53,453 nt of DNA from Escherichia virus TH37, in the sequence record MT446409.1, one strand, 5' to 3'. The notes beneath the pieces were generated by a model. The model was not told the origin of the DNA. It worked only from the letters and a program-made list of their open reading frames with translations, and ran no database searches. Made by a program: the position numbers and the translations under genes. Position 1 is the stretch's first letter, and every line of letters begins with the position of its first letter. This document shows positions 28,683-53,453 of the stretch, in pieces.

Positions 28683-29135
28683 CTAAACTCGTCCAGTTGA
28701 ACCAAGCCCACCTTCACCACGAACAGTGGAATTTAAGTGGTCAACTTCAACGAAATGGTGTTGAGTAGCTTTACTAACTTGCACTTGACAAACACGTTCG
28801 CCTGGTTGAATAACAAAGGCTGTGTCCGAGTCGTTGTGCAGCTTAACCATAAGATTACCGCGATAGTCGGAATCCAGAATGCCTGTGCAGTTTGCAAGGC
28901 GAATACCAGACTTAAAGCCGTGACCAGAACGGCTATGCACTTTGAGTTCGTATCCAATTGGTACTTCGAACTGGAGGCCAGTATCGACAACAACAGAAGA
29001 GCCGGGATTGATAACAACAGTGGTATCGGATACAGTACAAACATCAGCAGCAGCAGCACCAGCAGTAGCGTACACAGGTAATTTCGCATTAGGATGCACT
29101 CGTTTAACTGCAACAACTTGGGTCATACAAGACAT
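28683..29135 (-). CDS. dut: dUTP pyrophosphatase (dUTPase)
   Basis: 150 aa collinear with E. coli Dut: PVYATAGAAAADV, GILDSDYRGNLMV, IQPGERVCQ, RGEGGLGSTG. Confidence 0.9.
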   Translation of the reverse strand: MSCMTQVVAVKRVHPNAKLPVYATAGAAAADVCTVSDTTVVINPGSSVVVDTGLQFEVPIGYELKVHSRSGHGFKSGIRLANCTGILDSDYRGNLMVKLHNDSDTAFVIQPGERVCQVQVSKATQHHFVEVDHLNSTVRGEGGLGSTGRV

Positions 29136-29137
29136 GA

Positions 29138-29779
29138 TTATTTCTCTACTTGATAAGTTACGCGTTCAATCCAGTTGAACACTTTGAATACAGAATCACC
29201 CACTTTACCATCAACTAAATGCTCGTCCACTGTTACGCGGGTAGGTGTGTCTGGGAGGTTGATGTATCTGCGAGAATCGCCCGTGAAATCAAAACCATCA
29301 CGATGCAAACGCACAATGAGGACAAAATCATAAGCAGACTCAATGGCAACGACTTCATCACCAAAACCGCCATCGGGATAAATGACATTAATAATGCCAC
29401 CCATACGCCCCGCGAGTTCTTCAACACAAGCAGCTTCAACCTTACCGAAGTAGTCTTGTCCGTGGCGAGGTTTATACACGTCTTCGCTAACGTGAATAAG
29501 AGCCTGACGAGGTGTTCTGCCACCAAGACCTGCAAGGGAGATAGAGTCTTTGAGGTCACGGTCCGAAGCGTAGTGAATAAACTTGTCCACATCAACTTGA
29601 AAGTGTTTGGCAGTATGCTCATACAGTGCATCCTTAAACTGGTGTTTAGTGAATCGGCGCTTACCGAGAAAGTATGATTCCTCAGCAGCAACTATCTTGT
29701 TGGCAATTGTATCTTTACCACAGCCAGGTGGGCCATTAAGAATGACAGCTAAACGCTTAATCAAAACTTTCCTCACTCT
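29138..29779 (-). CDS. P-loop nucleotide/deoxynucleotide kinase (start uncertain, likely GTG/TTG near 29767-29779)
   Basis: Walker A LNGPPGCGKDT; listed ORF start overlaps the ligase gene, so a near-cognate start is proposed. Confidence 0.55.
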   Translation of the reverse strand, partial: RVRKVLIKRLAVILNGPPGCGKDTIANKIVAAEESYFLGKRRFTKHQFKDALYEHTAKHFQVDVDKFIHYASDRDLKDSISLAGLGGRTPRQALIHVSEDVYKPRHGQDYFGKVEAACVEELAGRMGGIINVIYPDGGFGDEVVAIESAYDFVLIVRLHRDGFDFTGDSRRYINLPDTPTRVTVDEHLVDGKVGDSVFKVFNWIERVTYQVEK

Positions 29780-31037: not shown

Positions 31038-32063
31038 TTATTTCTGGAGGTACTCTTCTTGAGTGAGGATACGATTCTCTTTAAGGTCAAAGTATTCGTT
31101 AATGTTCTTGTAATGCCACAGGCGAACACAATTTCCCTTTTCAACTTGATGGTGCATGTAAACAAGACGGCCTACTTTGAGTAGCTCTTGTTCCCAACCA
31201 TCTCCGAAGCGCATAATAAATGCACCAATAACTTTCTTCAAACCTTCTGCATAGGAGGTTGTACCATCCAGCATCTCGAATGAAGCAACTGCACCAACGC
31301 CATCACGACGGAAATAAGTTTCTCCGGCTTTGGCACCAGTTTTGTAAATCTTTTCTTCAAGAACTCCGCAACCCATAACGTTATCCGTTGAGTCACCAAT
31401 AAGCAATTGATGCAGGAAGAATTTAGGGCCATTGCCTTTAACTTCTTTCTTCTTAGATTTACCGTTGTCTTTGATAATTAATTTGAGTTCACCATAATCC
31501 TTCGGGATTACAATCTTCTCACCAATACCCTGAGATTCACGCTCCCATTGGTAATGTTTAATTACCGGACCAACACTACCGTTCTGCCCGATTTGTCGCA
31601 AGTCTTTGTCCAGCGACGCAATCCAGACTTCATCATATGTGCAAGGACCAATGCGCTTGAGGCTCTTAATCTCATTACGTTTGCCTGTTGTAATTTCGTA
31701 TTCATGGCGAGCGAATACGGCCAGAAGGTCATCTGCTTCCAGACCCTTCATCCAATACCCATTCCATGCAACGAGCAAGTGGGCCTTGGCATTCTTCAAA
31801 TTTTCTGGTCGCCACACGTTATCGCGATTGCCTTTATAATTTTCGGCAAACACGTTTCGCATTGTCTTAGAAGGAGATACGAAACCCATAACATGAGTTG
31901 CGCCAGAACGCTTCGACAAGAACTCCATCTTAGAGTCCATTGACATTTGAATCTTTGAGAAATTTATATCCTCTGGCTCTTTCCCAAATTCTTCTGCCGC
32001 ACAATGACTAAATGCCACCATATCAAAATCGACCAGCAAAAGAACTTTCTTCTTACTTGCCAT
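31038..32063 (-). CDS. 5'-3' exonuclease / flap endonuclease (T5 D15 / T7 gp6 family)
   Basis: 341 aa; VLLLVDFDMVAF, LEADDLLAV, IASLDKDL, LIGDSTDNVMG acidic clusters. Confidence 0.7.
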   Translation of the reverse strand: MASKKKVLLLVDFDMVAFSHCAAEEFGKEPEDINFSKIQMSMDSKMEFLSKRSGATHVMGFVSPSKTMRNVFAENYKGNRDNVWRPENLKNAKAHLLVAWNGYWMKGLEADDLLAVFARHEYEITTGKRNEIKSLKRIGPCTYDEVWIASLDKDLRQIGQNGSVGPVIKHYQWERESQGIGEKIVIPKDYGELKLIIKDNGKSKKKEVKGNGPKFFLHQLLIGDSTDNVMGCGVLEEKIYKTGAKAGETYFRRDGVGAVASFEMLDGTTSYAEGLKKVIGAFIMRFGDGWEQELLKVGRLVYMHHQVEKGNCVRLWHYKNINEYFDLKENRILTQEEYLQK

Positions 32064-32522: not shown

Positions 32523-33386
32523 TCAGAACGGCATACCATTGCCGCCAGCAGCACCACCTTCCGCTTCACGCTGTGCTTTTGCAGCAGCCTGTGCTTCCAG
32601 TTCAGCTTTCATTGCTGCATCAACTTCTTCATCAGAAGCCTGATTCGGAACAGAATCATCAGCAGGTTTACCGCCCAGCAGAGCAGACAGTTTGGTTTTG
32701 TAGAAGTCAACACCAGCAGTGATGCGGTTCTTGATTGCGTAAGGAGAATCGCCACCAGGCAGCTTGTTGAACACTTCTAAGTCTGGCTCAGACATGTCGA
32801 AGAATACAGTCGGGTTAACCAGAGCTTTGGCTTCTTTCTTCTCTTTGGACTTCATTGGGGAGAAGGTAGCAACCTTGTTCGCGACCTGACCAGCGTTCTT
32901 GCCAGACTGTTTGGTGTATTGAACAATGCCAACAACCAGAGGTTCGCCCAGCCAATCTGGCAGGTTCTTAGCAGGGTGGCCCTGAATACTTTGTTCCAGA
33001 TTCTGTTTAACTTCCAGAGCATCAATCGCCTTAGCGAATTTGTAGATGTGGGAGTTCTCACCCATGAAGCCATCAGCATTATAGGTAAACTCAAAGTCAA
33101 ACCAACGTGGCTTGTCTTCAAGATTCTTCGCCATCATGATGCCGTCATCTTCGTCCGGGTCTTGGACCATGACCATTTTGCCTTCGCCATCAACTTCTTT
33201 CATGTACTCGTCGAGCAGCTCGAAAGTTACGAGAAGTTTCAGGGATGGGTTTGGATATTTAGCAGAGCCTGGCTGTAAGCCCAGGTCGATAATACGGCAG
33301 ACACGAGCAGGATAACCACCCGCTTCCAGTAATGGTGCAGCAGAAGGAGTCTTGTTCGAGGCCAGAGTAGGAGCAGCAAATGCCAT
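32523..33386 (-). CDS. Putative ssDNA-binding/replisome accessory protein with Gly-rich C-terminus ending in Phe
   Basis: 287 aa between DNA polymerase and exonuclease genes; C-terminus ...EGGAAGGNGMPF. Confidence 0.3.
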   Translation of the reverse strand: MAFAAPTLASNKTPSAAPLLEAGGYPARVCRIIDLGLQPGSAKYPNPSLKLLVTFELLDEYMKEVDGEGKMVMVQDPDEDDGIMMAKNLEDKPRWFDFEFTYNADGFMGENSHIYKFAKAIDALEVKQNLEQSIQGHPAKNLPDWLGEPLVVGIVQYTKQSGKNAGQVANKVATFSPMKSKEKKEAKALVNPTVFFDMSEPDLEVFNKLPGGDSPYAIKNRITAGVDFYKTKLSALLGGKPADDSVPNQASDEEVDAAMKAELEAQAAAKAQREAEGGAAGGNGMPF

Positions 33387-33413: not shown

Positions 33414-33686
33414 TTAATCCACTTGCAACATTGCAAGGCGGAAGTCATATCCAACTAATGCTTCGGACAGCTCTTCAATTGAAGTTGTTGCCGAGATTAA
33501 AGTTTGGAGGTTTTTGAATGTCTCATCGTTAAATGCTTGAGACTGTGGGTCAGACGAAGCGAACACCTCGCCCTTAATCTTTTCAAGGAACGCCATTACG
33601 GCGTCCTTTGCTGGAACTTCGGAATCAGCAGCAAACATATGGTGCTCTAATTCCTGCATATCGAAAATAGAATATACAGTTTGCAT
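33414..33686 (-). CDS. Hypothetical protein
   Basis: 90 aa co-oriented ORF. Confidence 0.3.
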   Translation of the reverse strand: MQTVYSIFDMQELEHHMFAADSEVPAKDAVMAFLEKIKGEVFASSDPQSQAFNDETFKNLQTLISATTSIEELSEALVGYDFRLAMLQVD

Positions 33687-35620
33687 TAGTGAATCTCCGC
33701 GTAGTTATCACCGAACTGCACATCACATGCACAATCACGGTTAAGTTTGAGTTCTTTGTTGGTACGTTCCATTGCCTCATTAAGCAAGTCCGTCCACAAG
33801 TCACGGAAACCTTTCTTAACTTGGAGAATCAATTCATCGTGGAATTGTCCAGACAGAAGCGGGTCGCAGCCCCAACGTTCGTTACAAATTGCAATGATGT
33901 TGTTACACCAGATATCAAACACATATGCACCAGTACCCTGACACAATGTGGAGAATCGGTCTTTCTCTGTACGCAACGAATACCAGAATTTGTTTACTGG
34001 ATTCTGTTGCCACATCTGACCATCAATTGTTACAACTTTGGTGTTTGCAGCAATCTCTTTAATAGACCAGTTCAGGTCCCAATATGCTTTATGCAGACGT
34101 GCAGCAGTAGCCTGGTCACAGTCAGCAGAACGAGCAACAGTTGGAATACCAGCACCATACTGACAAGCATAGTTAGTGGTCTTAAACATTGGACGTTGTT
34201 TACACTTCTTAATTCCGTCCTTGTGGTCCTGAGATTCCTGTTCGGTGATAAATCCACCAATTACGCCGATTGCAAGGTGAGCATCATAGTCTGGTGCCAA
34301 CTGCTTCTTAACGTATTCAGGGTCATACATCCATTGGAAGTGGTGCTTACAGCGGTCTTCCAGTGAACACAAGTCAGAGCCTAACTGCTCGTAGTCTTCG
34401 CGCCACGCTTCCAACATTGAACGAAGCTCTTCACCGCCAAATACGCGAATAGAAGGGAGGTTAACAAGTTCGCGGTGTTTAAGACGTAAAGTATTGGTAA
34501 GACCACCGCATCTTGCAGTAAGGAATCCATCTTCATCGACGTCGCGAAGGAAACCATTAACAACAGACAGACGGTGTTTATACACGCCCATCCCAATAAG
34601 ATGTTGAATACCAGAGTCGGGGTTTCTTTCTGCCAGCTTATGCAAGCTCGGACAAATTTCGGGATTGCCATCTTCATCCTTGACCGTGATTTGAGGAATC
34701 TGGCGAGTCTCGCCTGTCTCTTTGTTACGGTCAAACTTAAATGTTTCTGGAACCCAGCCAAGGCTGAATAACCAATCTTTGATTTGTACGTGAGAACCAG
34801 CGTTAGGTTCTTTGTAACCCTTGAGCACCTTAATGTGCAAGTCTGGGTCTTTCCAGTCCAAACCGTTTGCATCACAGACAGCCTTCCACTTAATACCAGT
34901 TGCAGACAATTGTCCATTTAACTTGTGGCATTTGGCAGGACGCGACTTGATGACATATTCGGGAACACGAGGCATTGATGCTTCCAACGCATCCGTCTTC
35001 TCTTTAATCATTGGTTCCAGCTTCGCTTTAAATGCGTAAGCCTTCTCCATGTTCAGCTTCCAGCGAGTGCGTTGTTGAATAACTTGTTGACGTGCTTTGG
35101 TCATAAGGTATTCAATAAAGCGCTTAACTTCGCCAGGAGTTTTATAAATCTTGAGGAGTTGAATATATTGCTGTTCCCACAGCTTTAGCTGAATCTTACA
35201 GTCTTCCATCACACGATGGTTATATTCTTCCTGAGTTTGATTTTCCCAATCATCAATGACTGGTTTCGGCACACCAAACTCTTCTCCATAACCTTCTAAG
35301 CCGTGCTTAACACGACGAGGTTGCAGATACCAACTGATAAACAAAGTATCAATTAGTGTACATTTTGAAACGTCATAACCCAAGAACTTCAATGCTTCAA
35401 AGTCAAAGGTTGCGCCGTTGTGCATAATTAATGTTGGACCTGAGTCCAGGAATGCTTGAATGGATTTACGGTCAGTCCACTCTGTTACAACTTCTTCACG
35501 GGTTTGAACATCAATGTGTCCAATGTTGTGAAGACGTGGGGCAGCTTGTTTCCTCATCTGCTCCAACAAACCAGTTGTTTCAATGTCACTGGCATACATG
35601 TTATTCCAAGGATACAGCAC
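33686..35620 (-). CDS. Family A DNA polymerase (T7-like) with 3'-5' exonuclease domain
   Basis: 644 aa; Exo I motif SDIETTGL; motif B RPMFKTTNYACQYGAG; motif C LSGQFHDELIL. Confidence 0.85.
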   Translation of the reverse strand: MLYPWNNMYASDIETTGLLEQMRKQAAPRLHNIGHIDVQTREEVVTEWTDRKSIQAFLDSGPTLIMHNGATFDFEALKFLGYDVSKCTLIDTLFISWYLQPRRVKHGLEGYGEEFGVPKPVIDDWENQTQEEYNHRVMEDCKIQLKLWEQQYIQLLKIYKTPGEVKRFIEYLMTKARQQVIQQRTRWKLNMEKAYAFKAKLEPMIKEKTDALEASMPRVPEYVIKSRPAKCHKLNGQLSATGIKWKAVCDANGLDWKDPDLHIKVLKGYKEPNAGSHVQIKDWLFSLGWVPETFKFDRNKETGETRQIPQITVKDEDGNPEICPSLHKLAERNPDSGIQHLIGMGVYKHRLSVVNGFLRDVDEDGFLTARCGGLTNTLRLKHRELVNLPSIRVFGGEELRSMLEAWREDYEQLGSDLCSLEDRCKHHFQWMYDPEYVKKQLAPDYDAHLAIGVIGGFITEQESQDHKDGIKKCKQRPMFKTTNYACQYGAGIPTVARSADCDQATAARLHKAYWDLNWSIKEIAANTKVVTIDGQMWQQNPVNKFWYSLRTEKDRFSTLCQGTGAYVFDIWCNNIIAICNERWGCDPLLSGQFHDELILQVKKGFRDLWTDLLNEAMERTNKELKLNRDCACDVQFGDNYAEIH

Positions 35621-35686: not shown

Positions 35687-37450
35687 TTATTGATGTGGAC
35701 CGTTCTTCTTAGTAAGTTGAACAATCTCTTTGGTTTCGAACAAGGAGTCGTCCCAAGAACGTTGAATGATTCGACCAGAGTCTGAGTCATAATACGTCTT
35801 GAAGCCTTCTGTCTTACCACTCTTACGAGCTTTGATAGAACGAATGATTGAGCAGTTTGGGTCTACTGCCTGGCTATTACGCTCAAAGCCAAACATGCCA
35901 TGAGAATACTTAGCAGCAGCACGAGAGCCAGTAAAGTCTGACTTCTTGATTCGTCCACCATCTTCATGAGGTCGCTGACCTTTTGCCACAGGGTTAAGGT
36001 GCGACAAAATATTAACATGGAACTGATATTGGTCTGCCAGCTTAGTAATGTCTGCATACAGCTTGCCTAAGAAGTCGTTCTTCTCTGAGGCAGAAATCCC
36101 TTCCGATAAGTAGGTTAAGTTATCAAGAACAAACATATCAATGTCTGGACCAATCTGACGAAGAATCGTCTTTAACCCATCCCAAGTTTCATAAGGGTCT
36201 TCTCCAGCTTGCTTTCGGTCCCAAATCTCCATGTTACGAAGCATCTTCGCAGCAGTCTGACGGAACTTCGCTTCATCGTATCGAGGGTCTTCACGAGTAA
36301 ACGCAGGTTCCCAATACGGCAAGTTGTCGTTGAGGCCAGCCATACGGCGTAATGTTTCCGCAGGAGTTTCCTCCATGTATGCAGTAAACACTCCCCAATC
36401 ATGCTGAATGATGTTGTGATGCACAATCTGACGGGACAGGGTAGTTTTACCACCACCTTCTGCACCACCGATTGTAATAACTTCGGCTCGACGTTGACCA
36501 AACATTAAGTCGGTTAACTTGGGCCAAGGATAATCCACACCTTGTTCAACCTCATCATCAAGCTCTTCCATAAGAAGTTCTTTGTTGACAAGTGCTGTAG
36601 GTAGAGGACGGGCAGCACGGAATACAACAGCAGACTGAGTAGCTTTCAGTAAGCCACGTTTCAAACAGTCGTTGGCATCGTTGGCAGGAAGTGTGGCAAT
36701 CATTGCACCAGGCAGTAAACGACACGCTTCCTTTGCAGCTTTACGACCAGGTTCATCATCATCAAATACGATAACAACCTGCTCCCAACGTTGCTTGATT
36801 TCTTCTGCAACTGGTGACAAACATTTGTGTACGGAATCACTTCCATCACTCAAACTAATTACAGCAAAATCCAAATCTTCATATGCACCACCACGGTTCA
36901 TAGTTTTGAGGATTTGACGCAATGCGATACAGTCTTCTTCACCCTCTGTGATGAACAGAGTCTTACCGCCAATTGCTTTTGCAGCCAACCAATTGTAGGG
37001 TTCGTTGCCTTGTGTGTCACCAACCGACCACATAACTTTCTTGTTCAGAAGTTTAATCTTCCAGCGAACAAGTTTGCCATTCTTGGTATATCCATGGGCC
37101 AAGGCATTTGGAGTCTTGCCATCAAACTCTGAATAGAGTAGGCGAACACCAGCAGCTTTCCAGAACTCCGGTTCAATACTGCGATGGTCTAAATCAAATG
37201 GAGGGCACGAGGTTATTTCGTCAATTTCTTCCTGAATTTCTTCTGGAGTCTTGACTTTAATTTCCGGAATATTCTCCGGATTATTGCCGTACGGATTCGG
37301 AACGAGAACGCCACATGCAAAGCAGTAACCAGAGAAGTTCTTATTACCAGCTTCATCGACATTCAACCAAACCTGTAAAGACTTGCCAGATGTGGATTTA
37401 CAGTCTGGTACATCGTGCTTAATCTTGGCAACACATTGCTTGACGTTCAT
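35687..37450 (-). CDS. Primase-helicase (T7 gp4-like)
   Basis: 587 aa; N-terminal Cys4 zinc ribbon, TOPRIM-like middle, Walker A GGAEGGGKTT. Confidence 0.8.
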   Translation of the reverse strand: MNVKQCVAKIKHDVPDCKSTSGKSLQVWLNVDEAGNKNFSGYCFACGVLVPNPYGNNPENIPEIKVKTPEEIQEEIDEITSCPPFDLDHRSIEPEFWKAAGVRLLYSEFDGKTPNALAHGYTKNGKLVRWKIKLLNKKVMWSVGDTQGNEPYNWLAAKAIGGKTLFITEGEEDCIALRQILKTMNRGGAYEDLDFAVISLSDGSDSVHKCLSPVAEEIKQRWEQVVIVFDDDEPGRKAAKEACRLLPGAMIATLPANDANDCLKRGLLKATQSAVVFRAARPLPTALVNKELLMEELDDEVEQGVDYPWPKLTDLMFGQRRAEVITIGGAEGGGKTTLSRQIVHHNIIQHDWGVFTAYMEETPAETLRRMAGLNDNLPYWEPAFTREDPRYDEAKFRQTAAKMLRNMEIWDRKQAGEDPYETWDGLKTILRQIGPDIDMFVLDNLTYLSEGISASEKNDFLGKLYADITKLADQYQFHVNILSHLNPVAKGQRPHEDGGRIKKSDFTGSRAAAKYSHGMFGFERNSQAVDPNCSIIRSIKARKSGKTEGFKTYYDSDSGRIIQRSWDDSLFETKEIVQLTKKNGPHQ

Positions 37451-44254: not shown

Positions 44255-44764
44255 CTAGATTTTGTTTATGTATGCAAACTCGCCATGATACCTGAGTGCA
44301 GCAGCATTGTACGCCCTTGCCGCATCTTCTGGAGTATTGAAAGTGCCAAGGCATCTTCTTACACCATTCTCGGATATTCTGGCAACGTACTTGCCTCTAC
44401 TGCTTTTGTGGACACCTTTGTATCCAGAGGTGTTGGAGGTCGACACTCCTACGTTCATCAAGTTTTGTTTTGCAGACACATCACGAAGATTCTCAATTCT
44501 GTTGTTAAGGATATTCCTATCAACATGGTCTATAATCTTTGGGATATACCCATGATGTAGCCAGAATACTATCTGGTGAGCTTTCCATTTTGTACCTTCG
44601 ACAGATACTCTTAAGTACCCATCACTACACACATACCCAGCAACGTCTCCCGTACGAGCTTTTGGGCTAGTGGTTTGGGTTCGAATAAGGTTGCCCGTTT
44701 CTGGGCAATACCTTAAATATTTATCGAACCTTGGATTATTTCGGGAGTTCGAAATGAGGTGCAT
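44255..44764 (-). CDS. HNH-AP2 homing endonuclease
   Basis: 169 aa; HNH_3-like GYLRV...HQIVFWLHHG...IDHVDRN and AP2-like GYKGVHK...GKYVARI...GTFNTPEDAARAYN. Confidence 0.65.
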   Translation of the reverse strand: MHLISNSRNNPRFDKYLRYCPETGNLIRTQTTSPKARTGDVAGYVCSDGYLRVSVEGTKWKAHQIVFWLHHGYIPKIIDHVDRNILNNRIENLRDVSAKQNLMNVGVSTSNTSGYKGVHKSSRGKYVARISENGVRRCLGTFNTPEDAARAYNAAALRYHGEFAYINKI

Positions 44765-45131
44765 CCAAGAATTTAGCCCATTTAATAGGTTCTTCGTAGT
44801 GGGATAGCCACGTCGCCCCCCACCGTATAGTAATTCCCAATTCCTGTGCTGCCGAAAACATATGTTTAGCTAAAATTCTAAACCGTTCGAGGTCATTCCA
44901 GTCAATTGGATATGGTGCAATGTCCAAAGCGTTGCCTGACATGTGTCGGCTAACAGAAACTTTGGTTGCACCCTGCTTTAAAAGCTCTTGTTGACGTTCA
45001 TAAGAGCGTAAACCTTCCAGAACAGTTACATCAAAAGGCATGGTTTCACATGCCCGTTTGAAAACTGCCACTAATGAAGGATTTACTCCCTTAAGTCGGT
45101 CTAAAGAACGTTGGCCGAGCTTAACATTCAT
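44736..45131 (-). CDS. Peptidase M15 / LAS-family zinc peptidoglycan peptidase
   Basis: 131 aa; SRHMSGNALDIAP and DAPHFEL zinc-binding motifs. Confidence 0.55.
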   Translation of the reverse strand: MNVKLGQRSLDRLKGVNPSLVAVFKRACETMPFDVTVLEGLRSYERQQELLKQGATKVSVSRHMSGNALDIAPYPIDWNDLERFRILAKHMFSAAQELGITIRWGATWLSHYEEPIKWAKFLDAPHFELPK

Positions 45132-45406: not shown

Positions 45407-45636
45407 TGAAAATTATTTCCACTAGGGTGAATGGTTAATTTGAAGGATACTAATTCCTTATTGATTGAGGTTGTTCCTAGAACTGTTGCCTCAAACAACA
45501 TGGATTTGGAAGTTTCCTTACCCACACGTTCCAAGTATTTTACAACTCGGTCGTGAATTACTGCCCATTGGCGATATTCGCAATCAGATTCCAGCAGGTA
45601 TTGAACTCCATCAATAATAAATTCGGTTGAAATCAT
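45403..45636 (-). CDS. Hypothetical protein
   Basis: 77 aa. Confidence 0.3.
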   Translation of the reverse strand: MISTEFIIDGVQYLLESDCEYRQWAVIHDRVVKYLERVGKETSKSMLFEATVLGTTSINKELVSFKLTIHPSGNNFQ

Positions 45637-45992
45637 TTCTTCTCCGTACAGCTGGTGGATAAAACAGGATAGTTTGCTTTAAGGAAGTCTCCATCACGGA
45701 AAATCTGAAGTACAAGTTTGTCTTCATGATTTATAAACAGTGCAGCAAACCTGCTATCTTTAATGTTGTAGAACAAAACTGTTGCAGGATTTGGTTCATT
45801 GGAAGGAACCTCTATCCAAACACCAGCTTCAGGAATTATTGATGCAATCAGAGGTTGGCTATCCCCAATATTATCAATTGTAAGAGTGTATGCTCCACAT
45901 TTGAAATTCTTTGTTGATGCTTTAGACTCAAAGCTGAAGAACGCCAAAACAATTAATGCCAGAGTATAAATAATGATGTATTTAAGTTTCAT
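45633..45992 (-). CDS. Hypothetical secreted/periplasmic protein
   Basis: 119 aa with N-terminal signal-peptide-like MKLKYIIIYTLALIVLAFFSFESKAS. Confidence 0.4.
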   Translation of the reverse strand: MKLKYIIIYTLALIVLAFFSFESKASTKNFKCGAYTLTIDNIGDSQPLIASIIPEAGVWIEVPSNEPNPATVLFYNIKDSRFAALFINHEDKLVLQIFRDGDFLKANYPVLSTSCTEKK

Positions 45993-46044: not shown

Positions 46045-46749
46045 TTACAGCTTCTTAATAAGCTCTGCTGATTTGCTTGCGGCAGCTTTCATCTCATCGC
46101 GTGCGGCTTTAACTATTGATGCCTTGTCCACGCGAATGTTGCAGTTTCCGATTGCAATCTTGCCATCTTCTGTTGGTGCAAGTTGCTGTAGGTCCAGCAT
46201 TTGCTCCAGCTTTTGCAGAAGAATACGTTGTGCTTCGATTGCATTTTGGATATTTAATGTTTCCATGTTATTCTCCACAGGAAGGAATACTGGATTTGCT
46301 ATTGGAGTTATTTGGTTGGAAAACTCAATTGTTGGAGTTTCCTGTGCTGGTGGCGTATTAACAATGTGGACTATGCGGTTAGGTGAAAAGTCAAAGTATC
46401 CTGTTACATGGGTTAATCGAACCACATTTTCAGGTATTTCCCCAAGGTCTTTAACTTCCTTTATCTCAAAGAATCTGATTCCGTAAGATAAGATGTTTCC
46501 AGGTCGTACTTCATGCGCCAATACTGCACGGGTTGTGGTAGGCTTTATAAAAGATTCTGTAGTGGGACGTTTTTCCAATACTCTGACTATACGGCCCAAC
46601 TCAAAATTAAAGAATCCGCCAGCGTGTTGTAGCTGAACTACGTCACTAAGTCTGTTGATGTGTACAATCGGATACCCTCTACCATCATGAAATACAACAT
46701 CGCCAGTTTTGACCAAATTTGCAGGTATTTCAACAGCATTAATTGCCAT
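46045..46749 (-). CDS. Hypothetical protein with two tandem repeat domains and C-terminal coiled coil
   Basis: Internal duplication (...RIVRVLE / ...RIVHIVN segments); ATG at 46749 has GAGG SD. Confidence 0.4.
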   Translation of the reverse strand: MAINAVEIPANLVKTGDVVFHDGRGYPIVHINRLSDVVQLQHAGGFFNFELGRIVRVLEKRPTTESFIKPTTTRAVLAHEVRPGNILSYGIRFFEIKEVKDLGEIPENVVRLTHVTGYFDFSPNRIVHIVNTPPAQETPTIEFSNQITPIANPVFLPVENNMETLNIQNAIEAQRILLQKLEQMLDLQQLAPTEDGKIAIGNCNIRVDKASIVKAARDEMKAAASKSAELIKKL

Positions 46750-46871
46750 TATATTCCTCACGCATTGCTGAACAGTGCTTACACACCCAAAAGGTTACAT
46801 AATCGTTTGTATGAGAAATCTCCCAATTATGTAGCCCTATAAAACATAAAATTTTCATAGGGCATCTCCAA

Positions 46872-47243
46872 TTAGAATGGAATGTCGTCGTCGAAGTCTT
46901 TCGGCTCGTTCGGGTTATAATTGCTCTGCTGTTGTTGAGCAGGAGCTTGCTGTTGTGCAGAAGGTTGCTGGCGTTGCTGTTGCTGTTGAGCGGCAGCTTG
47001 AGGTTGAGCTTTGGCTTTAGCTTTCTCTTCACGCTTACGCATCATTTCATCAACCTGCTCTTGAGTCATGATGGTGAGTGCCAGTGAGGTAAATTCATTA
47101 TCGTTGGCTTGCTTGTTCCAACCAGACACCCAATACCAGATTCCGTCAACGTTAATACGTCCACGAATGTCAGGATGTTTTGGGTCTTTCTTGAAGCCGT
47201 TAGGACCGATAATGCCAGTGTTTACATCTGAATATTGTGCCAT
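46872..47243 (-). CDS. Small Gln-rich protein ending in the bacterial SSB C-terminal tip DFDDDIPF
   Basis: 123 aa; last 8 residues identical to the E. coli SSB tip as recalled; low-complexity Q/A-rich linker; short N-terminal domain. Confidence 0.5.
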   Translation of the reverse strand: MAQYSDVNTGIIGPNGFKKDPKHPDIRGRINVDGIWYWVSGWNKQANDNEFTSLALTIMTQEQVDEMMRKREEKAKAKAQPQAAAQQQQQRQQPSAQQQAPAQQQQSNYNPNEPKDFDDDIPF

Positions 47244-47368: not shown

Positions 47369-47821
47369 TCATTTACAGATAAATACCGGAATATCCATCT
47401 GGTTTAAATACTTAAGCATAAGTGGACGTACTTGTGTTGCATAGTCCAGCTGCCCATTTCCACAACCAAGTGGGGTTATTGCAAGTGAGGTTATTCCACA
47501 GCGTTTGTAGGTTTCCACCAACTTAACAAGGCCCTGTTCAATCCACCCAAGTTGAGAAGGATTTTGCCAATGTTGTTTTGTTGGGAAACATAGCCCAAGA
47601 CGGCCATCATTAAGACGCTGCAACAGCAATTGCCCAATCTTGAATCCACGGTTGCACGCAGTTCTGTAGTTCTTAAATGCTTCTGGATAGCGGCGTTTAT
47701 ACTCTTTTGCAACACCAGCACCCATTACGCCAACAAGATTCACAGTACAAGTTACAGTTTGCGCATCCACAGTAAATACGTTGGCCTTACCTTCAAATAC
47801 GATTGGCATAATCTTCTCCAA
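47369..47821 (-). CDS. Macrodomain protein (ADP-ribose binding/processing)
   Basis: 150 aa; VNLVGVMGAGVAKEYKRRYPE and ITSLAITPLGCGNGQLDY match macrodomain signatures. Confidence 0.65.
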   Translation of the reverse strand: MEKIMPIVFEGKANVFTVDAQTVTCTVNLVGVMGAGVAKEYKRRYPEAFKNYRTACNRGFKIGQLLLQRLNDGRLGLCFPTKQHWQNPSQLGWIEQGLVKLVETYKRCGITSLAITPLGCGNGQLDYATQVRPLMLKYLNQMDIPVFICK

Positions 47822-48720: not shown

Positions 48721-48951
48721 TTATTCAATTTCTTCCCAGGACCAGACGCTACCTTCCAAGGGAACACTCTCTCCCGCAGGCCAATATGGGGTGCCATAGT
48801 AAGTTCTGCGGTCACTGTCTTCTGTGATGTTTATGCGAGTCTGCACTCCATCCTCGTCTTTAATAGTTACAAGCTCTCCCTCAATAATATCTCCAACCTT
48901 CGGAGAATACTCAGATGAAGAAGAAGATTCTACACATTTAAATTTAGCCAT
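48721..48951 (-). CDS. Hypothetical small acidic protein (paralog A)
   Basis: 76 aa starting MAKFKCVESS. Confidence 0.35.
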   Translation of the reverse strand: MAKFKCVESSSSSEYSPKVGDIIEGELVTIKDEDGVQTRINITEDSDRRTYYGTPYWPAGESVPLEGSVWSWEEIE

Positions 48952-49178
48952 TATTGAAGTACACCTTGTTCACAAATATCTGCAAATTCTGCACGATGGT
49001 CACGCTGCCATGTCCAGAATGCACCATTCATAGGAACGACAGCACCTTTACGAAATGCTGGAGAAATGCTTTCAGCAGATTTGGTTACTTTAAATTCCAA
49101 AGGCGAAATAGCTTCACCTTCAATGATTAAGCCAACTGGAACGTAGTCTTTGTTGGAAGCAACACATTTAAATTTCAT
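48951..49178 (-). CDS. Hypothetical small protein (paralog B)
   Basis: 75 aa starting MKFKCVASN. Confidence 0.35.
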   Translation of the reverse strand: MKFKCVASNKDYVPVGLIIEGEAISPLEFKVTKSAESISPAFRKGAVVPMNGAFWTWQRDHRAEFADICEQGVLQ

Positions 49179-52012: not shown

Positions 52013-53453
52013 TTATTGACAGAAGTAGTAAGCGTGTTCGCTCATCAGAAGCTCTTCAGTAACAATGTTCTCATGGTACATGTTGATGCCACCAAGTTGC
52101 TTAGACAGAGATTCAAACTGATTATTGTGAACAAAGATTTCAACATAAGCAGAACGAATTACTTCCATCATTTTAGGAGCATCAGCTAAGCAGCAACGGA
52201 AACAATCGTGAATTGAAGTAAAGCCACGAAGACCAGCTTCTTTAGCTTTGACTGCAACAGTACGAGCAACCAATGCGTCAATACCTTGAATGTAGTTAAC
52301 AACGAAGGTACGCTTGAATTCTTCTTTAGTTGGGTTGGACTCACGAATGGTCCAAGGCTTATTCTCCTGAATCTGACCAAAGATAACACGAGTTTGAGAG
52401 TCAACACGAATGCTGAATGCCTCACAGATTTCACGAGATGGGAAGCAAGGCTTCATTACAACCTGACCATCAGTGTGACGATATGTGATGTACTCTTTAC
52501 CAAGTTCAACACAACGATTGTATGCAGCATCAGCAGCTTTCTCGATGAACATGTTAATCTTAGCACCCAATGCGTTATGGATTGCTTCTACACAAAGTTC
52601 AGCAAATGCTTCTGCTTTCTCAACAGGAATCTGGAGAGATGCTGTCATGTATGCAATGAAGTCAGAAGAACCAGTTAATGCAGCTTTACCACCACCATAT
52701 TGGATAGCCATGTATGGAGTTTTGATAAACTTACGACCAGCTTTCGGATTCAAGAATTCATCCATGATTTCAGCAGATGGTTTCATTGAAGAACGGTCAA
52801 GCAACTTCAACAGTTCACGAAGAGATAACTGGTATGGGTCAGATGCTTTAGTTGATGAATCAACCAGACCTGTTGCACGAGCCATCTCCATGTTACCAGC
52901 AATGAATGCCAGATATTGAGTACCAGAACATTTAGCATCTAAGCCAAAGCCTACACGAGAATCGCATTCACCTGTAGTCTCAAACTTGAACCAATCCAGA
53001 GCCAGACGAACATAAGTGAATGGCTTAGAAGGACGTTCAGCTTTAGGCATGTTCATCATGCGAGCAAGTGAACCAGCTGGATTCTGAGCAACATAAGTTA
53101 AACGCTTAGCAGAAGTCCAGTCTCCACCGGAAATATCTTCCAGCTCTGCCATAAACATGTTGTATGCAATGGTAGTAGAACCATCTTCGTTAAACTTCTT
53201 AACGATGTTCTCAACATTGTGAGAATACAAGCAACGAGCAAAGTCAGATGATTGTGGGTTAGGACCAGCACATGCTACATGGTACAGACGACCACGGTTA
53301 TCAGCAAAGTAGTCAGAGAACAGAGTGTCCTGACCAACCATTGCTACAGCATTGTTCCAAACATGGAGTTCAGTCTGGATTGCTTCTGGCATCTGCAAGC
53401 CACCATAAGTACGTTGTTCAATCATAGACTGGATGATGCGAACCATCTCAGTC
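52013..53453 (-). CDS. T7-like single-subunit RNA polymerase, C-terminal part (N-terminus beyond the window end; matches 1-1217 across the repeat)
   Basis: DNRGRLYHV, motif A-like GLDAKCSGTQYLAF, motif B-like KTPYMAIQYGGGK, motif C IHDCFRCC collinear with T7 RNAP DWRGRVYAV / DGSCSGIQHF / MTLAYGS / IHDSFGT. Confidence 0.85.
   Translation of the reverse strand, partial: TEMVRIIQSMIEQRTYGGLQMPEAIQTELHVWNNAVAMVGQDTLFSDYFADNRGRLYHVACAGPNPQSSDFARCLYSHNVENIVKKFNEDGSTTIAYNMFMAELEDISGGDWTSAKRLTYVAQNPAGSLARMMNMPKAERPSKPFTYVRLALDWFKFETTGECDSRVGFGLDAKCSGTQYLAFIAGNMEMARATGLVDSSTKASDPYQLSLRELLKLLDRSSMKPSAEIMDEFLNPKAGRKFIKTPYMAIQYGGGKAALTGSSDFIAYMTASLQIPVEKAEAFAELCVEAIHNALGAKINMFIEKAADAAYNRCVELGKEYITYRHTDGQVVMKPCFPSREICEAFSIRVDSQTRVIFGQIQENKPWTIRESNPTKEEFKRTFVVNYIQGIDALVARTVAVKAKEAGLRGFTSIHDCFRCCLADAPKMMEVIRSAYVEIFVHNNQFESLSKQLGGINMYHENIVTEELLMSEHAYYFCQ

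Follow-up and report, generated by a model that had tools for sequence, protein, structure and literature searches.

A Chaseviridae protein carrying the bacterial SSB C-terminal tip on a predicted non-OB domain

Introduction

Escherichia virus TH37 (sequence record MT446409.1) is a coliphage of the Chaseviridae (Cleopatravirinae, phiEcoM-GJ1/ST32-like). Its DNA of 53,453 nucleotides, referred to here as the window, encodes a protein of 123 residues whose last eight residues, DFDDDIPF, are those of the enterobacterial SSB (single-stranded DNA-binding protein). This locus raises the question of what function such a tip serves when the domain that carries it seems too small to be that of an SSB. 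A first-pass annotation, made from the letters alone, had suggested either a minimal phage SSB or a decoy or adaptor for the proteins that interact with SSB. Here we favour, with some reservation, the reading that the protein is a genuine phage SSB of a non-OB type, which would bind single-stranded DNA (ssDNA) and recruit partner proteins through its C-terminal tip (SSB-Ct).

Results

The gene is a complete open reading frame (ORF; Table 1). Its full product is MAQYSDVNTGIIGPNGFKKDPKHPDIRGRINVDGIWYWVSGWNKQANDNEFTSLALTIMTQEQVDEMMRKREEKAKAKAQPQAAAQQQQQRQQPSAQQQAPAQQQQSNYNPNEPKDFDDDIPF, and the C-terminal stretch is NYNPNEPKDFDDDIPF. A sequence search of the PDB shows that all eight residues of the tip match the end of the enterobacterial SSB chain 7f2n (...NEpPMDFDDDIPF), and DDDIPF is the SSB-Ct hexapeptide (PMC5872125). 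The motif DFDDDIPF occurs once across the six-frame translation of the window. Besides this ORF, 1 of the 627 stop-to-stop segments of at least 40 residues in the window has an xPF end, and the chance expectation for an exact C-terminal 8-mer is about 1e-9 per proteome of such size. Among 25 relatives, F117, D118, I121, P122 and F123 are invariant. Given this exact identity, the low chance expectation and the invariant residues, we conclude that the tip is real and conserved, and not a chance match.

The tip is displayed at the end of a low-complexity region. Between residues 76 and 115, 16 of the 40 positions are Gln, 8 are Ala and 5 are Pro. In a structural model created with AlphaFold2 (AF2) from an alignment of 25 sequences, in which secondary structure was assigned with DSSP, residues 89-114 have a predicted local distance difference test score (pLDDT) below 50 and come out as disordered. 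In models of bacterial SSB, it is the linker with which this region aligns. The first-pass description of a Gln/Ala-rich linker followed by the SSB octapeptide is thus borne out, and two features of the bacterial SSB family are present, namely a disordered low-complexity linker and a DDDIPF end with a free terminal Phe, directly followed by the stop codon.

The third feature of that family (PF00436/TIGR00621), an N-terminal OB domain of about 110 residues found by the family's hidden Markov model, is absent. A Pfam scan of the 123-residue protein returned no SSB or OB match, even at E<=10. Alignments to the NCBIfam SSB models score some ten-fold under the cutoff and cover no more than residues 42-123 or 74-123; in the PDB sequence search, the tail residues 85-123 alone align with an SSB chain; and a comparison of the family with the OB domain of E. 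coli SSB using hhalign gave a probability of 0.17%. The protein is already named as an SSB in the databases. It matches PHROG 7364 (9.5e-43) and PHROG 18154 (4.2e-18), both 'single strand DNA binding protein', its orthologue carries an SSB annotation in about 45 Chaseviridae genomes, and the orthologue in relatives has been named 'single-stranded DNA-binding protein' (PMC6266442). Because there is no Pfam SSB or OB match, and because the NCBIfam and PDB alignments are restricted to the C-terminal part, this name very probably derives from the tail, as we read the annotation history.

The AF2 model indicates what may stand in place of the OB domain. Four strands (residues 9-14, 26-32, 35-46 and 49-60), with pLDDT block means of 90-94 over residues 11-60, are followed by a helix whose start is conserved (T60, Q61, V64, D65, M67), and which is modelled with confidence as far as residue 72 or so before it gradually gives way to the linker. 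As modelled, four strands with a helix after the sheet are not an OB topology. That is, the N-terminal domain does not model as a full OB fold, the outcome that had been expected of an ordinary short SSB, and the first-pass remark that it is far shorter than a canonical SSB OB fold stands, at about 60 as against about 115 residues and with no OB signal. The invariant residues of the domain are G28, R29, N31, W36, Y37, W38, W42 and F51. The periodicity of the strands places R27, R29, N31, W36, W38, S40, W42, K44, F51 and S53 on one face and aliphatic residues on the opposite one, a pattern that would suit a nucleic-acid-binding sheet.

The β-β-β-β-α repeat topology of the PC4-like fold group (PMC7549692) is found in the AF2 model; the helix that follows the sheet is present in just 43 of 148 family representatives (about 30%). 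A Foldseek search of the PDB gave a best E of 0.11, and the structural neighbours in BFVD are limited to uncharacterised family members, a DUF736 protein and a 'SSB' of a Vibrio phage. Using hhalign against one human PC4 sequence, HPDIRGRINVDGIWYWVSG aligned with VRDFKGKVLIDIREYWMDP (52%, E = 1.5e-4), which places W38 on PC4 W89, the DNA-stacking Trp (PMC4350104). A profile-profile comparison with a PC4 alignment gave the same register over 39 columns at only 2.8%, which is not significant; the single-sequence match is therefore a mere hint, and we describe the predicted fold as PC4-like in topology, homology unproven. No solved relative was found by PDB sequence searches with the family profile or with a DUF736-positive member. 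The one borderline PDB match of the family profile, at E = 0.02, was to a hairpin of 16 residues in the B subunit of Shiga toxin 2 (its residues 20-35, TVKVDGKEYWTSRWNL), which resembles the β2-β3 hairpin motif (V/I)DGxEYWxSxWN (protein residues 25-59; profile positions 28-43); this short resemblance is probably due to chance.

The N-terminal domain belongs to a very large and mostly metagenomic family. A profile of the domain retrieved 1929 representatives (50% identity) at E<=1e-3, and a broader profile 6814 clusters (90% identity) at E<=1e-5. Members are mostly 70-140 residues long, with a median of 88 in the second of two samples. In these samples 85 of 149 and 98 of 120 sequences have acidic-(I/L/V/M/P)PF ends, the remainder being mostly close variants or truncated; overall, some 60-90% of the members sampled terminate in acidic-(I/L/V)PF. 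The same tip pattern is seen in members from bacterial genomes and metagenome-assembled genomes (MAGs). Isolated phages with a family member almost all infect Proteobacteria, hosts that share DDDIPF; the tips of MAG-derived members are DDLPF, DDIPF, DEVPF and similar, the taxonomy of the bins being unreliable. A literature search found no paper on the fold or function of the N-domain family. What seems to have gone unrecognised is the non-OB nature of these proteins, how large their family is, and the rule that members carry an SSB-Ct tip.

The domain is duplicated in tandem in 16 of 182 family sequences (9%); a single-sequence AF2 model of one such member, P0057, has a pLDDT of 47. Tandem members also connect the family to Pfam DUF736 (PF05284). 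Five of them (P0063, P0070, P0088, P0103 and P0154), retrieved by the N-domain profile at E values of 5.6e-14 to 2.2e-10, reach 22.6-30.5 bits against DUF736, above its gathering score (22.1 bits), the Pfam match in relatives spanning positions 26-75 only of the 99 in that profile, and several close relatives bear the JGI label 'DUF736 family'. The 123-residue protein itself has no DUF736 match even at E<=10, and the link is therefore transitive; these comparisons suggest that the N-domain belongs to the DUF736 superfamily, at the superfamily level only. Two apparent architectures were set aside: P0035, with 1158 residues and 21 'repeats', is spurious, being a repeat protein of low complexity, and the fusion of L037 to a primase-like ORF looks like a chimeric MAG contig.

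The free carboxylate of the C-terminal Phe is considered essential for recognition of SSB-Ct. In several members (P0110, P0277, P0288, L031, L008, L020/L025) residues follow the IPF tip, recurrently as ...DDIPF[AG]PEFR or ...LPFR, and a post-tip extension is also seen in the Chaseviridae relative P0014, whose C-terminus is FDESIPFAPIGLQEGRRYLHCI. Such extensions might be frameshift or read-through variants, or might represent a masked tip.

We examined seven genomic neighbourhoods of relatives, i.e., those of two phages and of five metagenomic or prophage contigs selected by length alone. In Vibrio phage QH (phiVC8-like; PurZ, DatZ) the family gene, the sole annotated SSB of the genome, lies directly upstream of the genes for DNA polymerase I and primase. 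In Klebsiella phage K21lambda1 (L003) the gene, which encodes a single-domain, helix-less member, is immediately downstream of DNA polymerase I and adjoins PurZ. These two members, both from phages with PurZ/DatZ/DNA polymerase I Z-genomes, share the end PPMDFDDDIPF. In all five contigs the family gene is at most two genes from an annealing protein or exonuclease: it lies one gene past a Sak4-type AAA_24 (L041/L042), directly past a YqaJ exonuclease in a Bordetella prophage (L043), directly past ERF and overlapping it (L044), directly past an exonuclease (L045), and past SSAP_Sak, a RecE-like exonuclease and a helix-turn-helix gene (L046). An ssb gene is found next to about 80% of sak4 genes, and stimulation of Sak4 requires the last six residues of the neighbouring SSB (PMC5928155). 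The position of the family in these contigs is the one classically taken by the SSB in phage recombination modules.

All genes of the window are encoded by the minus strand. The gene for a T7-like RNA polymerase is some 5 kb upstream of the SSB-like gene, and the lysin and replisome genes are downstream of it (Table 1). The first-pass label 'early' is thus only approximate. In T7 the map order is genes 1, 2.5, 3.5, 4, 5 and 6; the order in the window matches it, and the SSB-like gene is therefore in the slot equivalent to that of gp2.5. Recent capture from a host ssb gene was ruled out, as none of 5,426 E. coli genomes gave a nucleotide match, and a plasmid or integrative and conjugative element origin is unsupported by tblastn against plasmids, which gave no matches.

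A second protein of the phage, of 287 residues and encoded between PolA and the 5'-3' exonuclease, also has an SSB-Ct-like end. In Chaseviridae and Zobellviridae its homologues are likewise encoded after the DNA polymerase, and their C-termini read DDIPW, DDNPW, DEDLPW or DDPFA. Neither Pfam nor the PDB yielded a match to it, and comparisons with T7 gp2.5, the HK620 DUF669 SSB and the DUF736-like domain showed no similarity. Against the NCBIfam model NF046043 ('phage replication initiation protein, NGO0469 family') it scores 61.9 bits, below the cutoff of 75, and its homologue in Pseudomonas phage K4 scores 118 bits, above that cutoff.

The surroundings of the SSB-like gene contain further features. 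The gene is preceded by a gap of 125 nt, and no sigma-70-like promoter was found near it. Past its stop codon is a hairpin; the RNA fold of positions 46762-46880(-) has a minimum free energy of -30.6 kcal/mol (z = -2.3). A simple terminator scan did not call this hairpin as a terminator, and it may be a transcript 3' end or a processing element. The macro-domain protein encoded upstream may remove ADP-ribose and have an anti-defence role. The 238-residue protein encoded downstream has, by eye, two similar N-terminal segments followed by a charged helical C-terminus, and its orthologue in MLP1 is longer (a coding sequence of 906 nt). Farther upstream, the sequences of two adjacent ORFs indicate a tandem paralogue pair in the early region.

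Table 1. Features of the SSB-like gene and its surroundings in the window, and of the member in Vibrio phage QH.
Feature	Coordinates	Strand	Remarks
SSB-like gene	46872..47243	-	complete, 123 aa; ATG 47243..47241, TAA 46874..46872
Four-stranded β domain, residues 1-60	47064..47243	-	predicted; candidate DUF736-superfamily core, putative ssDNA-binding surface
α-Helix after the sheet, residues 61-88	46980..47063	-	DSSP H61-88; pLDDT block means 86, 73, 52
Gln/Ala/Pro-rich intrinsically disordered linker, residues 89-115	46899..46979	-	from pLDDT <50 and composition
DFDDDIPF tip, residues 116-123	46875..46898	-	equals the enterobacterial SSB-Ct tip
Hairpin, 11-bp stem (GCCCUAUGAAAA...UUUUAUAGGGC)	46834..46863	-	9 nt past the stop codon, within a 110-nt intergenic gap
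238-aa protein	46045..46761	-	next gene downstream; its one family assignment is PHROG 20048 (function unknown), over just the C-terminal part
119-aa ORF	45633..45992	-	between the SSB-like gene and the lysin; hydrophobic signal-like N-terminal segment MKLKYIIIYTLALIVLAFFSFESKAS
M15 lysin	44736..45131	-	
ThyX		-	between the lysin and the primase-helicase
Primase-helicase	35687..37450	-	
PolA	33686..35620	-	
287-aa protein	32523..33386	-	ends ...GGAAGGNGMPF
5'-3' exonuclease	31038..32063	-	
Ligase, then terminase		-	beyond the exonuclease in gene order
Macro-domain protein	47369..47821	-	immediately upstream of the SSB-like gene; Pfam PF01661, 1.3e-8; PHROG 335 'phosphatase'
Paralogue pair, 76 and 75 aa	48721..48951 and 48951..49178	-	each matches PHROG 18786
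Block of small ORFs		-	between the RNA polymerase and macro-domain genes
T7-like RNA polymerase	52013..53446	-	
Vibrio phage QH member (L002/L057)	28709..29185		158-aa 'SSB', tandem two-domain, ends NEPPMDFDDDIPF

Discussion

The analysis shows an ORF with a conserved tip and no OB signal; it also shows which fold is predicted, how large the family is and how its members are built, and which genes surround them. From these results we propose how a non-OB SSB might work. The DNA-binding module would be the four-stranded antiparallel β-sheet of about 60 residues with its helix, in a topology like that of PC4, Pur-α and Whirly. The working unit would consist of two DUF736-type sheets, provided by a homodimer in the 123-residue protein and by tandem duplication in some relatives, and the face of the sheet rich in Trp, Phe, Arg and Lys would contact ssDNA. 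The Gln/Ala/Pro-rich linker and the free C-terminal Phe would then display the SSB-Ct docking peptide, such that the tip, on phage ssDNA, could recruit proteins that read SSB-Ct. Candidate partners are the host SSB-interacting proteins and/or, by analogy with the tail of gp2.5, the phage PolA, primase-helicase and exonuclease.

The choice that the first-pass annotation offered, a minimal phage SSB or a decoy or adaptor, is supported in part: its first half, recast as a non-OB SSB, is what we favour. What weighs against this is that the phage encodes two proteins with SSB-Ct-like ends. The 287-residue protein could be the replicative ssDNA binder, leaving a narrower role for the small protein; the two tailed proteins could also have a common docking site on a phage or host partner. 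In either case the decoy and adaptor readings stay alive.

In the decoy reading, in which it competes for the SSB interactome of the host, the protein would not need to coat ssDNA; its tip, expressed before replication, would titrate or redirect proteins such as ExoI, RecQ, PriA, RecO, Ung and the chi subunit, and so protect phage DNA or shut down host DNA transactions. The identity of the tip to that of the host over eight residues, with NEP before it as in host SSB, is consistent with such mimicry, as are a gene position in the early, host-takeover part of the genome next to the macro-domain gene, and an N-domain that is small and not an OB fold; moreover, the tailed protein of the replisome module could be the actual replicative SSB. 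We nevertheless consider the decoy unlikely. In seven out of seven neighbourhoods of relatives, the family gene occupies the position of the SSB in a replication or recombination module, and in QH it is the sole annotated SSB-like gene. The invariant Trp, Phe and Arg residues on one face of the sheet, together with the tandem duplication, argue that the N-domain binds a ligand. Finally, the tip is ancestral to the family across many host phyla, and the gene has no nucleotide similarity to any E. coli genome.

Another possibility, to which we give little credence, is a PC4-style adaptor or cofactor. Its β domain would bind melted or unusual DNA (bubbles, forks or nicks) or a phage protein, while the tip couples a polymerase or helicase; that is, the protein would serve as a transcription or replication-initiation cofactor rather than as a general ssDNA coat. 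The evidence for the fold is weak, the recurrent neighbours are annealing proteins, exonucleases and DNA polymerases, not transcription genes, and a long SSB-like linker with a tip is the mark of SSBs that coat DNA. That the protein is just a short but otherwise ordinary member of the bacterial SSB family with an OB fold, as implied by the annotation of relatives, the names of PHROGs 7364 and 18154 and the weak matches to NCBIfam SSB models, is very improbable, being contradicted by the Pfam, NCBIfam, hhalign and AF2 results.

The non-OB SSB that we favour can be compared with several known systems. Bacterial SSB (E. coli SSB; PF00436, TIGR00621) likewise combines a DNA-binding domain, a disordered low-complexity linker and an acidic tip; by contrast, the phage protein has no OB fold, no sequence similarity outside the tail, and a domain of about 60 rather than about 115 residues, and it is probably a dimer rather than a tetramer. 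The acidic C-terminus of T7 gp2.5, which ends in Phe, contacts the phage replisome. The 123-residue protein shares with gp2.5 an acidic tail with an aromatic end, as well as the map position between RNA polymerase and replisome genes; gp2.5, however, is an OB-fold protein of 232 residues, and no gp2.5-type match to the 123-residue protein was found in Pfam or PHROG, nor is its predicted fold OB. The SSB of HK620 (DUF669) is a divergent phage SSB beside an annealing protein, Sak4, and members of the present family occupy the same slot after Sak4/AAA_24, Erf or Sak. It is the cognate SSB of Sak4, whose stimulation requires its last six residues, NDYPPF (PMC5928155), but it belongs to another domain family, has about 195 residues, and is described as a distant homologue of OB-type SSBs. 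A precedent for a non-OB phage SSB is the PC4 homologue of phage T5 (PDB 4bg7), the proposed replicative SSB of T5. The nearest curated family is DUF736, of unknown function and at the superfamily level only, and the nearest fold class is the PC4-like one (PC4, Pur-α, Whirly), which is unproven. Whether these proteins, thousands in number, form a third class of phage SSB architecture, in which a single or tandem DUF736/PC4-like sheet is joined to a bacterial SSB linker and an SSB-Ct tip, is a question on which we are evenly divided.

If the protein were a decoy after all, the virus would possess a simple mimic of an interaction hub that is central in bacteria. If it is a non-OB SSB, the SSB-Ct docking peptide would work on a non-OB scaffold; the role of SSB as a hub would then be separable from the OB domain, and the tip would be a portable docking module independent of that fold. 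DUF736 and its relatives, thousands of clusters, would gain a first and testable function as an ssDNA-binding domain, and many phage 'SSB' annotations would be right in name but for the wrong reason, i.e., tail similarity. Several defence systems that sense phage SSBs have reportedly been described (Retron-Eco8 and DARNA), and a structurally different class of SSB could behave differently towards them. The finding would also bear on recombineering, where the matching of annealing proteins to SSB tails limits portability. Lastly, it would become clear what fills the SSB role where phages have no recognisable OB-fold SSB, such as in the Chaseviridae, the phiVC8-like Z-genome phages, and many of the recombination modules of prophages that contain Erf, Sak, Sak4 or exonuclease genes.
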